Shown here: piece after piece, positions 5,959 to 63,816 of the stretch
How positions within the stretch are numbered: the first letter of the stretch is position 1
How the letters are laid out: every line of letters starts with the position of its first letter
Virus record (IMG/VR): IMGVR_UViG_3300025030_000053
Location: 41,767 to 105,766 of that record
Source: a virus
Length of the DNA stretch: 64,000 bases
Strand: one strand, 5' to 3'
Notes under the pieces: generated by a model
What the model was told of the DNA's origin: nothing
What the model saw: the letters and a program-made list of their open reading frames with translations, nothing else
Database searches by the model: none
Position numbers and translations under genes: made by a program

Positions 5959-6669
5959 GAAATAAAAATGCTGAAACAATTAATAAAAATTGCAAATTCA
6001 TTAGATGGTCATAATATGCTCAATGAATCTGAAATTTTAGATTCTGTGATATATAAACTTGCCTACACATCTGAAATGCAAGGCACAGCATCAGAAATGG
6101 CAGCGATTGATCCAGAAAAAGCGCAATTTGAGCATTTAGGATTGTTCAAGAAAATTTCACAACAACCAATCAATTTAGTCAGCCGACTCAGTCGTCCAGA
6201 AATAGCAATTGAATCTTTTCTAGGTGGTGCAAATATACAAGACATGGTGAGCAGAGCAGTAATGGAATTGAACATCCTTGCTCAACGACTCGGAGGATAT
6301 GAAAAAGAAATGGGTATGCCTCGATTGCAGCAAATGGGATCTGTTAAGGTGCTGGAAATGATGAATCATCCAGAAATAGAGGCAATATACTATTCCGACC
6401 CAGAATCCCTAGAACACGAACGAAGACACCAGCGGGGAGAAACCAAGACTCCAGAGCAAGTCAAACAGGACATTGCTTCACAATTGCAATCAGTGTTTCC
6501 GCAGGAAGTTCCGCCAGAAGAAAGACAAAGAATCATCAGTGAATGGATGGATAATTATATTTCCAACCTTGGGAGATATTACGCACAAGGCGAAATTCCA
6601 GGAGAATTAGCTGCTGATCTTCCTACAATCACAGATAAGGCAAAGAAAGATTTGAGTCAGATGTTTTGA
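5959..6669 (+). CDS. Putative virion protein with 'KIAxxLD' helical leader and HExxH motif
   Basis: Likely start 5959 (RBS GAGG) MLKQLIKIANSLDGHNMLNESEILDSVIYKLA; LEHERRH...GEIPGE. Confidence 0.6.
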   Translation, partial: EIKMLKQLIKIANSLDGHNMLNESEILDSVIYKLAYTSEMQGTASEMAAIDPEKAQFEHLGLFKKISQQPINLVSRLSRPEIAIESFLGGANIQDMVSRAVMELNILAQRLGGYEKEMGMPRLQQMGSVKVLEMMNHPEIEAIYYSDPESLEHERRHQRGETKTPEQVKQDIASQLQSVFPQEVPPEERQRIISEWMDNYISNLGRYYAQGEIPGELAADLPTITDKAKKDLSQMF

Positions 6670-6869
6670 TTGTTTTCAATTACGTCATCAACACTAAAAC
6701 CAAAAAAATCAGCCAATTCTTCGATAGATGGCTGATTCAAGTCTCGATGAATAGTATCCAAAAAAAGTCCTTGTAATCCACGATTCCCCCTGGTCATATC
6801 ATTAGGATTTTGAATTAAAATTTCATCCGATGAAAAGACAGATGATTGTTTTTTATTCTTCTGTTTCAT
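6657..6869 (-). CDS. Hypothetical protein
   Basis: 70 aa ORF overlapping the upstream gene. Confidence 0.5.
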   Translation of the reverse strand: MKQKNKKQSSVFSSDEILIQNPNDMTRGNRGLQGLFLDTIHRDLNQPSIEELADFFGFSVDDVIENNQNI

Positions 6870-7677
6870 TTAAACTCGCTAGAATATTCTTTTGCATATT
6901 TTTAATGACATGTTCTCTATCAGTAGATTGAAGTGTAGAAATGATGTGCTCACACGGAATCTCAAAAGTTCTAAAATTACCTTCTACATATCTTGAACAA
7001 GTGCAGACTCTATTTTTTGAATCTACGCCTACCAATTCCTTGTCATCTCTAACCGCAAAAACATTCTTTCTTTCAGTTCTTGAAATTTTGATAACTGGAT
7101 ATTTCACCTCTGCCAGCAAATAACTCTTCTGAATTTCCCGATCAACGTGAGGAGACATTGCTTTGTGGAATGCATTTATAGCAGTAGGCTCATTTTTGCG
7201 ATAATCAACATATCTCAATATTTCTTCAAAATTTGCTTCTTCATCTTTTGAGGAAAAAACAATCAAAGAATTTTTATATGTGTGGTCATTGGTTGCTAAT
7301 TTCAAGAATTCCTTTGGGGACATAGACAATACCAATGATTCTAGATGATCTTTAAGATCATCATATTTCTCTGGAATTTCATTTTTGACTTGTGCATATA
7401 CTTCATTTGTAATTCTTTTCACATCTCCAACACTAGACCCTTCTGAAATTAACACATCCTGAGTATCGCTTTCGAAAAATCCAAGATCTTTGTATTTTTT
7501 TGCTTCCTTGAACAAATTTTCAATTTTTGTCATAGGATTGACAGAACTTTGCTTTGTCCAATTCAAATAGACATCAGATCTAACTTTTGGAAGTTTCGGC
7601 TCAACATAAACTTCTCGATTATCTTGGTTGGATTTTTTGATGAAATCCAGAATTGTGTTGTCAGTTTTTACGCTCAT
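6853..7677 (-). CDS. SWIM zinc-finger protein
   Basis: C-terminal CTC-x(12)-CEH; RBS AGGAG; upstream AGGA-N18-GAAA at 7708..7733. Confidence 0.7.
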   Translation of the reverse strand: MSVKTDNTILDFIKKSNQDNREVYVEPKLPKVRSDVYLNWTKQSSVNPMTKIENLFKEAKKYKDLGFFESDTQDVLISEGSSVGDVKRITNEVYAQVKNEIPEKYDDLKDHLESLVLSMSPKEFLKLATNDHTYKNSLIVFSSKDEEANFEEILRYVDYRKNEPTAINAFHKAMSPHVDREIQKSYLLAEVKYPVIKISRTERKNVFAVRDDKELVGVDSKNRVCTCSRYVEGNFRTFEIPCEHIISTLQSTDREHVIKNMQKNILASLNETEE

Positions 7678-7703
7678 TGAAAACTCTCCTAATTAACTTT
7701 TTG

Positions 7704-7925
7704 TTATTTTCTATACTTCTGTGGGAGATTCCTTTCTTTTTTTAAATCTTTCCACCAAGTAGTTCCACAAAATGGACATTCAATTTCCCAGGAAATAACA
7801 TCGCCAGATTTATCTTTGATTGCCCTAATTTCAAAAAGTCTTGAATTCATATTCGTACAAGGCTTTCCTCTTACCTCTTTTGATCTACAAGAAGTTATAA
7901 CCGGTTGTTGTGGACTATTTCTCAT
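7704..7925 (-). CDS. Small zinc-ribbon protein
   Basis: C..C and CPFCG; RBS AGGAGG. Confidence 0.6.
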   Translation of the reverse strand: MRNSPQQPVITSCRSKEVRGKPCTNMNSRLFEIRAIKDKSGDVISWEIECPFCGTTWWKDLKKERNLPQKYRK

Positions 7926-62117: not shown

Positions 62118-62181
62118 CAGATCGATCTTTCAAAGAATGAAACAAAAATTCCTTCAAAAGAAATTTTTGAAAAATTAAATG

Positions 62182-62667
62182 TCATTGCGCCAGATCGCAC
62201 TCCCAGTTGCAAATGATTCTGATGAATTGATTGGTCATTTTTTCCGAGAATTTTTGATCAAATTTTGACAAAGAATCAAGAACACTGCAAAATTTTTGAA
62301 ACAATTTCAAAGATCTGGGGATCGCCGTGTGATATCCTATTTGACTGGTGATGAAAATTTCCAGGATGTTGTGCAGTGGGGGGTTGAACCATTTGATGCG
62401 GTGTAACATTGATCGAGGGCCAGACAATGAATCAAAGAAAATGTGCTTGCAGTCGTGCGTATCTTGAAGAATGACGACAATTTCTTTGTGCGAATCGTCA
62501 GCCATTGTGTTGAGAGAAAGAGTCAGGCAATTGTGCAAATAAATGCCACGCAAATGGGGCGAGAAATGATTTCTTTCGTGAAATTGTTCATAATGCAATC
62601 TCATTGAGCAGGCATTGAGAAAAAATCCAATCAACAGCCAATTTTGCAAATCTTTCATCGAGATCAA
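62182..62667 (-). CDS. Hypothetical protein
   Basis: 161 aa ORF. Confidence 0.4.
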   Translation of the reverse strand: MISMKDLQNWLLIGFFLNACSMRLHYEQFHERNHFSPHLRGIYLHNCLTLSLNTMADDSHKEIVVILQDTHDCKHIFFDSLSGPRSMLHRIKWFNPPLHNILEIFITSQIGYHTAIPRSLKLFQKFCSVLDSLSKFDQKFSEKMTNQFIRIICNWECDLAQ

Positions 62668-62986
62668 ATTCGATCAAATTTCTTCGCAGTGCGACCAGTC
62701 TGAAAAAATATCTGCGAAGAACAAAAATCTCTCGCAAATCAAAAGAATAAAATTCTCTGTCAGATGTGAGACACATCGAATCAATCAGGGTGTCCTGATT
62801 GACAAAGCACCCGTGGATTGTGTTCCAGGCTCTGAAACGATCAGACAGCAATGAAACAATGGCAAGCAGATTTGGTTGTTCTCCTACGAACAAAACCAAA
62901 TCTACGCCAGAAACATGGCTCCAGTTGGCGATGTTCTCTGGCGAAATGTTGCGAGCAGCGATCAAATGTGCAGACTGGTGGTTCAT
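62588..62986 (-). CDS. Hypothetical protein
   Basis: RBS AGGAGG before ATG 62986. Confidence 0.5.
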   Translation of the reverse strand: MNHQSAHLIAARNISPENIANWSHVSGVDLVLFVGEQPNLLAIVSLLSDRFRAWNTIHGCFVNQDTLIDSMCLTSDREFYSFDLREIFVLRRYFFRLVALRRNLIEFDLDERFAKLAVDWIFSQCLLNEIAL

Positions 62987-63090
62987 CCAATGTCCTCCTT
63001 TCGATCAGAATGCTCAATCAAAAGATTGATTTCAACAACCAAGCAGGAAAAAACAAAAAATTGAGAGAACAGGAACACAGGAGAAGCAGA

Positions 63091-63816
63091 ATGTGGCTCA
63101 AACTGGCAGTTGAAAATCAGGAAGCAATGAAAAAAATTGCCTCAGTCAATTCCAAGATTCAAGCAATTCAATCTGAAGCAAACAGGATTGTCAGAATGTT
63201 GCAAAATGAAATCAAGGGAAGGCAGCATCGCAACAACAATGACAATTGGTTCAAGTTCAAGTTCGGAAATGCGCTGAAAGCTTTGTTCAAGGCAACCGAT
63301 GAAGAATGGAACGCACCAGACAAATTTGTTTGCGAAATTGAAATCAGTCCAACACCAGAATTTTCAAGAGCAATGTTTTCACAAGAGATTAATTGGATCT
63401 ATCTGCCAATCACGACAGGCAGAAACAAAATTGATGACAATACAAAGGGAATTCTTTTTCATGAACTGAAGCATGTGGTTCAGAACGTCCTTCAAACTTT
63501 AATCAGAGACGATGACTATTCATTAGACTATGATCCCAAAACATTGGGCTCGGTGTTGGGCTATGTCAATGGTTATTTTTTCAATCAATCAGAAATTGAA
63601 GCAACGGCAGCAAGGATCTATCTGGAATGGAAGTCCGGAGCAGATTTGAAAACAGGATTCAAGCAGGAAGTTGACAGAATCAGATTCCCCTTCAGAATGT
63701 TTGCCAATCAACAATCTTCAATTCAAGCAATCGTGGATCAATTGGAAGATAGATATTCAAACGCTTTGAAAAGAGAGTTGAAAAAGACCTATCCACTGAT
63801 CAAAGATTTGATTTGA
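63091..63816 (+). CDS. HExxH zincin-like protein with MWLKLA leader, paralogue of 58472..59317
   Basis: Start 63091 (RBS AGGAG); KIQAIQSEANR, LFHELKHVVQ, YF..EIEATA, YPLI; GCAGGA-N18-GAAC at 63043..63070. Confidence 0.75.
   Translation: MWLKLAVENQEAMKKIASVNSKIQAIQSEANRIVRMLQNEIKGRQHRNNNDNWFKFKFGNALKALFKATDEEWNAPDKFVCEIEISPTPEFSRAMFSQEINWIYLPITTGRNKIDDNTKGILFHELKHVVQNVLQTLIRDDDYSLDYDPKTLGSVLGYVNGYFFNQSEIEATAARIYLEWKSGADLKTGFKQEVDRIRFPFRMFANQQSSIQAIVDQLEDRYSNALKRELKKTYPLIKDLI

Follow-up and report, generated by a model that had tools for sequence, protein, structure and literature searches.

An alanine-based leader motif on unrelated proteins of phage G-like huge phages: a candidate capsid targeting and cleavage code

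The stretch of DNA analyzed here (the window, 64,000 nucleotides) comprises bases 41767-105766 of a 105,766-bp IMG/VR contig from an uncultured huge phage (CheckV completeness ~30%). Several otherwise unrelated proteins of this contig begin either with a short Trp-containing tag or with a longer helix-pair leader, and both kinds of N-terminus end in the motif hh-K/R-x-Ala (h, hydrophobic residue). We give a probability of about 0.5 to the reading that these leaders are a cleavage and targeting code of the phage G-like huge phages, similar to the capsid targeting sequence (CTS) of phage T4 but based on Ala, and read by a protease of the assemblin fold. The nearest cultured relative is Bacillus phage G, whose gp27 is 52% identical to the major capsid protein (MCP) of the contig. 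The comparisons below involve G001 (the closest relative, 183 kb, MCP 86% identical), G002 (a complete genome of 461 kb) and phage G itself (NC_023719).

The strict form of the tag has the core (M)W-[LM]-[KE]-[LFM]-A and is found at the starts of six mostly unrelated open reading frames (ORFs) of the contig, against ~0.03 expected. The pattern W-h-[KR]-x-A occurs six times in the six-frame translation of the contig, and five of these sites lie at most five residues from a Met, opening a frame of at least 60 amino acids (aa); the sixth tagged ORF begins with MWMEFA, having Glu at the K position. Among called genes, four carry the strict tag at residue 7 or earlier, where composition or the internal rate predicts 0.02-0.05 (P ~1e-7). 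The tagged genes of the window are listed in Table 1; upstream of it, the tag is present on an 854-aa SNF2 helicase (MWLKFA) and on proteins of 215 aa (MWMEFAS) and 160 aa (MWMKLAK). An all-against-all BLAST revealed that the tagged proteins are mutually unrelated save for small sets of paralogues, and the codons at the hydrophobic positions of the tag vary synonymously (CTA/CTC/ATG; CTT/CTG/TTG/TTT), which argues that selection acts on the peptide. One of the tags, MWLKLA at 63091, starts at an internal ATG of the longest ORF (62851..63816). The protein starting at 59317, a distant paralogue, opens with the same peptide, and thus the true start of this gene is probably 63091. A search for homologues of the 160-aa protein returned self matches only, and its proposed ADP-ribosyltransferase (ART) homology, based on the segment FPYHSTS, was rejected because the match was not significant (E 9).

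The preliminary description of this DNA, made from the sequence alone, had defined the set more broadly, as unrelated proteins sharing hydrophobic-K-x-A near their N-termini. All the peptides that it quoted are present, and the positions it attached to them are those of the gene starts, but the sharing stands far above chance only for the strict W tag. The loose h-K-x-A is 2.5 times as frequent in the first 12 residues of the proteins of the contig as internally, and the control h-K-x-S is 2.9 times as frequent; in G002 and phage G, the N-terminal to internal ratio of h-K-x-A is 1.0-1.4. Being near chance and no more enriched than its control, it was rejected as a signal by itself. The internal FLKTAQ and ITKFAS, which had been counted as members, are chance-level matches, sites of this kind having a background rate of ~1 per 1000 aa. 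Two of the N-terminal members are not conserved, since the G001 orthologues of the Rnl1-type RNA ligase (KTIKLAS) and of the 345-aa protein starting at 47485 do not have the tag; the ligase match is probably due to chance or to a recent gain. The MEKIAQ start of the 554-aa protein resembles the ..EKIAQ or ..KKIAQ ends of the long leaders, and a promoter-like motif described below ends 10 nt upstream of position 62117; its membership of the leader set is uncertain. In line with the earlier view of a system based on Ala and not on Glu, the tags have Ala, and neither (L/I)-x-E nor [AGS]-x-E is enriched at N-termini (ratios 0.5-1.1). Also as had been anticipated for a signal restricted to packaged proteins, the tag is absent from the N-termini of all ten core replication proteins considered.

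The tag is spread across the phage G-like phages in branch-specific forms, its counts in G001 and G002 being far above expectation. In G001 there are seven MW[LF]K[LF]A genes against 0.03 expected, in G002 the MNWYKxAQ type accounts for seven to nine genes against 0.13-0.17, and in phage G about a dozen genes start with MKRL[IMF]KK[AS]; in three genomes the strict tag has a P of ~1e-7 or lower. The exact MNWYKxAQ DNA pattern was matched 47 times in 2.9 million viral contigs of IMG/VR, and all 47 matches open an ORF. These correspond to 43 distinct proteins in 34 unrelated clusters, and at least ten of the contigs found in this way have a phage G-like MCP. The tag is retained, with some variation, in orthologues of the 215-aa protein (MWMEFAS, MWFDYAQ, MWLKFTT, MWLKFAN, MWLKLAI and MYLKVAQ). 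No paper describing the tag came up in a literature search on it and on capsid targeting sequences in very large phages.

The second kind of N-terminus is a leader of ~30 residues. A pair of helices had been noticed in four proteins, one of them at the C-terminus, and it is genuine in five N-terminal leaders, namely those of the genes starting at 5968, 55128, 55206 and 17095 and of a 164-aa gene beside the protease. The five share the consensus h-h-K-h-A-x-x-L-D-x-x-G-(4-6)-[AS]-D-x-L, also expressed as (L/I)IK(I/L)AxxLDxxG....(A/S)D.L, followed by h-K-x-A. The C-terminal copy in the 554-aa protein is weak (ESADRLM as compared with ESADYLM). Only self matches were obtained when homologues of the 391-aa leader protein were searched for.

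The relation between short and long leaders became apparent in the family of the HExxH protein starting at 5968, for which an exhaustive profile search detected three homologues. P0010 has a helix-pair leader that ends in ..TLMKLA, followed by Q; in P0011 the N-terminus is helical and longer, with ..IQRMA at its end, likewise followed by Q; and P0012 has just the short start MNWFRLA, followed by K. The segments YKLA, MKLA, QRMA and FRLA occupy a single alignment column, and the homology of the four proteins starts directly after the Ala, while the parts upstream of it are different (helix pair, longer helices, or only MNW). This arrangement suggests, at the level of sequence, that short tag and long leader are exchangeable modules, resembling propeptides, in front of a boundary that h-[KR]-x-A marks. 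A fourth match of the same search, P0013, has three tandem LIKLANHLDSKGFVKEADYLD units, and in relatives helix pairs are found at the C-termini of some head-module proteins, with no domain after them. Moreover, a 602-aa protein of G002 contains KNWYKIAQ internally, besides MNWY.. at its N-terminus, and this internal copy precedes a domain that elsewhere is standalone and tagged. A related-loci search with the family of the 5968 protein gave no match in viral contigs.

The same motif is concentrated in head proteins, where the preliminary description had proposed to look for it. The head module is located just upstream of the window and has the order portal, a 1407-aa protease fusion, three unknown genes (164, 700 and 221 aa) and MCP. 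Among 63 distinct protease fusions of 1400-2400 aa, there are 361 hh[KR]xA sites, 3.7 times the expectation from composition and 5.8 times when the residue after the Ala (P1') is limited to S/T/Q/A/K/N, and among 46 distinct C-terminal regions of portals, 19 contain the motif at a distance of 30-75 residues from the end (3% expected); since these polyproteins and portals share phylogeny, such counts are not independent and show conservation. The reversed motif reaches 1.6 times its expectation, other control motifs 0.4-1.2 times, and hh[KR]xA in the remaining proteome 1.2 times. Polyprotein sites conserved in position include those at the very N-terminus (MAIYKTAT, MGFTKRAS), one about 25 residues ahead of the protease core (..(Q)IKTAS..) and LVKEAQMMGGQ, and some internal sites hold a Trp (NDWIKTAS, NEWMKVAR). 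Examples in portals are LVMKYAS, LIKTAS, FIKLAQ and, in phage G, KEEKIAS. The residue that follows the Ala is mostly Ser in the polyprotein sites and mostly Gln in the MNWYK tags.

The fusion gene sits between the portal and major capsid genes, a position expected of prohead proteases. A head-maturation-protease domain covers residues ~52-365 of the 1407-aa protein and matches phrog_18299 (head maturation protease, E 4e-17); there was no match in Pfam, nor any sequence match in the PDB with a 28-sequence profile. An AlphaFold2 (AF2) model of residues 1-340 (pLDDT 81.5) has as its best non-helical matches in VIA-align the protease of varicella-zoster virus (Z 10.4, rmsd 2.7, 115 aligned residues) and T4 gp21 (Z 9.4, 126 aligned), with further matches to the proteases of herpes simplex virus 2 (Z 8.8) and human cytomegalovirus (Z 8.5) and Foldseek probabilities of 0.96-0.97. 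Judging from this model, the protease domain has the assemblin/T4 gp21 beta-barrel fold. His95 and Ser146 (GTSMG), 51 residues apart, are invariant in 28 orthologues.

From these data we infer the following course of events. Proteins bearing one of two interchangeable N-terminal modules, i.e., a tag of 6-8 residues (MW[LM]K[LF]A in this phage and, in other branches, MNWYKxAQ or MKRLIKKA) or the helix pair of ~30 residues, would be made together with the head proteins and, while the prohead is being assembled, would attach either to the scaffold/protease polyprotein or to the inner shell. The serine protease of assemblin fold would then cut at or beside the Ala, as the herpesvirus assemblin does at (V/L/I)-x-A↓S, and would also trim its own polyprotein and the C-terminus of the portal. 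The cargo, which would comprise zincin-like, ART-like, SNF2 and other enzymes, would stay in the head and enter the next host with the DNA. Only tentatively do we go further and propose an address code, legible in the sequence, by which dozens of unrelated enzymes would be sent into the capsid. Its two docking modules, each able to replace the other, would be the Trp tag and the helix-turn-helix leader, both ending in hh-K/R-x-Ala, and an assemblin-type protease would remove it afterwards. Peptidases, ADP-ribosyltransferase-like proteins, helicases, anti-defence proteins and even metabolic enzymes would be among the cargo. The earlier proposal of an Ala-based head-loading system is partly and indirectly supported, by the motif in head proteins, the protease fold, the exchange of leaders, the lack of the tag in core replication proteins and the kinds of tagged cargo, while a part of the list on which it was built is at chance level or not conserved.

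Several observations weigh against a targeting and cleavage code. A leader of six residues is short for a targeting signal, and in the AF2 model of the 5968 protein, built from four sequences, the leader is a helix-turn-helix of low confidence (pLDDT <50). Tags are gained and lost between close relatives, as seen in the G001 orthologues of the RNA ligase and of the 47485 protein. The portal of this phage (G000) has no clear motif site, and the shared phylogeny of the polyproteins and portals also belongs here. A full glucose-6-phosphate dehydrogenase (G6PD_N + G6PD_C) of a relative (L148:11652-12971, +) starts with MNWYKWAQ, and such a metabolic enzyme fits injection poorly. Finally, the K of the motif (P3) can be replaced by E, D or N in the N-terminal tags but hardly varies in the polyprotein sites; the two classes may therefore have different reading partners.

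This last difference would be easier to understand if the W tag were a sorting or interaction tag for some other destination (a chaperone, a ClpXP-type degron, the membrane, or a replication or assembly compartment) and only resembled the head-protein motif. The Trp is nearly invariant in the tags and rare in the polyprotein sites, some tagged proteins have a transmembrane segment directly after the tag, and phage G encodes ClpP and ClpX. Nevertheless, we regard another destination as unlikely, given that W-containing sites do exist inside the polyproteins, that a W site lies inside the 602-aa protein, where it precedes the domain found in other cases as a tagged protein by itself, and that short tag and long leader align at the same Ala in homologous proteins.

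The nature of the tagged proteins bears on a further alternative. Three of the five HExxH proteins of the contig bear a leader (those starting at 5968, 59317 and 63091), the last one having a weak Pfam match to the putative metallopeptidase family DUF6782 (E 0.0096), and tagged HExxH proteins were also found in G001 and G002. Pfam searches with 49 tagged proteins of the clade yielded SLT transglycosylase, GNAT, methyltransferase, the Thoeris inhibitor Tad6, P-loop kinase, nucleotidyltransferase, a cyclic-phosphate-processing domain and the G6PD mentioned above. Phage G has an expanded (Y/F)H(G/T)TS family, KptA/ADP-ribosyltransferase-like, whose members include gp53, gp233, gp251 and ORFs at 81.7, 246.0, 401.7 and 446.7 kb; most members have MKRL..-type tags, and two paralogues (402.4 and 420.4 kb) have none. 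External and other proteins, i.e., the decoration homologue, the phage G tail module and the core replication genes, do not have the tag. The particle proteome of phage G is reported to comprise 104 proteins, many enzymes among them (PMC12484599). Its RNA ligase gp265, which was detected in the virion, has no clear tag.

According to this alternative, the motif would be a processing site only. Trimming there, by the protease of the phage or by one of the tagged HExxH peptidases, would activate or mature the proteins in the cytoplasm, with no capsid targeting. It agrees with the presence of the motif in both the protease polyprotein and the portal, with the peptidase-like character of several leader-bearing proteins, a class often made as zymogens, and with the tagged metabolic enzyme. 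However, as is generally known for T4, HK97 and the herpesviruses, prohead proteases of this fold act inside the procapsid; the loss of six residues is unlikely to activate such diverse folds; and the helix-pair module also occurs at the C-termini of head-module proteins, where no domain follows it. Processing without targeting is, in our opinion, quite improbable.

The genes of the leader set are also distinguished by their upstream regions. The promoter-like motif AGGA-N16-18-GAA[TAG] precedes seven of ~11 leader genes of the contig and five of ~96 other genes; the earlier statement had been that nearly all these proteins are under SigH-type promoters. In the cases where the motif is near the start, 8-11 nt separate its end from the ATG (10 nt in the case of 59317) and no Shine-Dalgarno sequence is visible, suggesting that the tagged genes may give leaderless late transcripts. 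The conserved start could then be a feature of the mRNA or DNA, such as a promoter-like element or the first transcribed or translated part of leaderless late transcripts, rather than a peptide signal, all the more since Trp and Met have single codons and TGGC..TTGCA looks sigma-54-like by eye. We consider this very improbable: the Leu/Phe/Met codons vary synonymously, the motif is also found internally and after 30-residue leaders, and in other branches the peptide persists although the nucleotides differ and the genes have ordinary Shine-Dalgarno sites, which indicates that the tag is not a by-product of the promoter arrangement. The sigma-54-like element was discarded on account of these codons and nucleotides, and its GG-GC spacing is, by hand count, one base shorter than the sigma-54 consensus. 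Chance and paralogy, in the sense that the eye selected a loose motif among N-termini rich in K, would fit the equal enrichment of h-K-x-S and the paralogous pairs (59317/63091 and those of G001). Against them stand the P values of the strict tag in three genomes and the 34 unrelated MNWYK clusters. As an account of the strict tag and of the helix-pair leaders they are refuted, and they hold for the internal and some of the loose N-terminal matches.

The comparison with known systems begins with T4, in which the CTS is carried by the internal proteins IPI-III and Alt and removed by the prohead protease gp21 (Mullaney and Black 1996, cited in PMC10052503). As in T4, a short N-terminal leader is common to unrelated, often hypervariable proteins and ends in a motif that marks the sites of the protease in head proteins (here, candidate sites recognized by sequence); the protease has the same fold class (see the match to gp21 above), and ART-like enzymes are among the putative cargo, as Alt is in T4. 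Unlike T4, there is no sequence similarity, the motif being hh-K/R-x-Ala instead of (L/I)-x-Glu; the tag is shorter (6-8 residues), is accompanied by a second, interchangeable helix-pair module and is known from sequence alone; and the protease is fused to a polyprotein of 1400-2400 aa. In the phiKZ-like phages, the prohead protease gp245 of SPN3US cuts propeptides at an A-X-E motif (PMC10052503). There too, many head, portal and ejection proteins have N-terminal propeptides with one short motif, in several copies inside the propeptides; that system is Glu-based, its propeptides are long and dissimilar, without a common leader, and it belongs to an unrelated phage lineage.

Assemblins of herpesviruses act at maturation and release sites of the form (V/L/I)-X-A↓S, which, as far as the sequences can tell, would be the nearest known specificity to the motif described here. 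Both systems share the protease fold, a small Ala mostly before Ser (polyprotein) or Gln (MNWYK tags) and hydrophobic residues upstream. They differ in that a K/R is fixed here two residues before the Ala, and in that the herpesvirus sites are confined to the scaffold/protease precursor and are not tags on cargo enzymes. Encapsulin cargo-loading peptides are likewise short terminal peptides that dock unrelated enzymes in an HK97-fold shell, and the MCP of this phage is short (286 aa), but most encapsulin peptides are located at the C-terminus, and they stay uncleaved. The Dar antirestriction proteins of phage P1, among which DarB has an N-terminal packaging signal, and the "polyvalent" injected proteins are mentioned in PMC7824862. 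They deliver helicase, methylase, ART, GNAT and peptidase domains from the capsid, and the tagged set is similar to them in domain repertoire, the level at which they were compared; here, separate proteins each have their own tag instead of one giant fusion. The Prp/L27-type leader of Staphylococcus phage 80alpha (..(F/L)F followed by A(S/H)KK) is similar, by eye, only to MWMEFASKK, and the motif described here differs from that system in having its own phage-encoded candidate protease and in occurring in phages of varied habitats.

Table 1. Leaders, tags and other features located in the window.
Feature	Position	Strand	Protein or remark
MWLKLA	63091..63108	+	Strict tag; 241-aa HExxH protein (63091..63816)
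MWLKLA	59300..59317	-	Strict tag; 281-aa HExxH protein (58472..59317)
MTTFNWLKMA(S)	47485..47514	+	Strict tag offset by 4 residues; 345-aa protein (47485..48522)
Long leader LIKIANSLDGHN..SEILD ending IYKLA	5968..6063	+	HExxH protein (5968..6669)
Long leader MKKKFSKMLRYAEYLDQKGKHESADYLMKTA	55036..55128	-	391-aa orphan protein (53953..55128)
Long leader MQIANVIQQADFFDSWSQHNVSDWLMKEA..RMIKTA	55206..55328	+	611-aa protein (55206..57041)
Long leader MQKDIIFSEQLDFDSNFEQSDDFMEKIA	17012..17095	-	277-aa protein (16262..17095)
C-terminal SFALESFDDFESADRLMLLTCH	60453..60521	-	Weak helix-pair-like copy in the 554-aa protein, without K-x-A
MEKIAQ	62100..62117	-	Loose match at start of 554-aa protein (60453..62117)
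MSKFKTIKLA(S)	49810..49839	-	Loose match on Rnl1-type RNA ligase (48517..49839)
Internal FLKTAQ	16670..16687	-	Chance-level match
Internal ITKFAS	46532..46549	+	Chance-level match
Promoter-like motif regions	59318-59360, 55129-55205, 62118-62160		Also upstream of the window
Terminase large subunit	2967..5123		
Sigma factor	10753..11616		

The window has a G+C content of 35% and no tRNA genes. In addition to the features of Table 1, among which the 55206 and 55128 genes are divergently transcribed, it encodes a sliding clamp, a clamp loader, ThyX, the RNA ligase and a ribonucleotide reductase with an HNH insertion. The large subunit of the latter (1685 aa, 18018-23075, -) has the HNH endonuclease segment at residues ~370-494, possibly an intein or a homing endonuclease inserted there. 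Two tandem paralogues of ~537 aa at 1-1142 (-) and 1215-2831 (-), which start with MNYFKYRCTFRGPG and MANFHAYRCTYRGPG, have no family match; the promoter-like motif ends 9 nt upstream of the first one, whose N-terminus loosely resembles MNWYK. Upstream of the window, the 1085-aa portal (L003:4920-8177, -) has a LAGLIDADG-like segment (residues 466-537) and a C-terminal DUF559/restriction endonuclease-like domain, and in several relatives this C-terminal nuclease domain stands in the place of the motif-bearing portal tail. The MCP belongs to phrog_2522, has no delta domain and has 120 relatives in IMG/VR, on contigs of up to 548 kb. The last 80 residues of a 330-aa protein (L002:9158-10150, -), also upstream of the window, match this family (E 1.6e-6), and this protein is possibly the product of a second capsid-like gene. 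A megablast search of the window against phage records gave no match. The proteins of the contig recur on 11-12 other contigs of the protein collection, the longest of 138,132 bp, and thus a longer assembly of the same phage exists.

If the leaders are indeed a targeting and cleavage code, the first-strike set of proteins injected by the largest known phages, with its enzymes for host take-over, anti-defence and RNA repair, would be readable from the genome. Phage G can be cultured, and its MKRLIKKA tags and gp19 protease offer a direct test system. Were a phage protease of the assemblin fold to have, in addition, an Ala-based specificity like that of herpesvirus assemblin, this would be informative on the evolution of the protease family, and the tags could serve to package foreign proteins into very large capsids.

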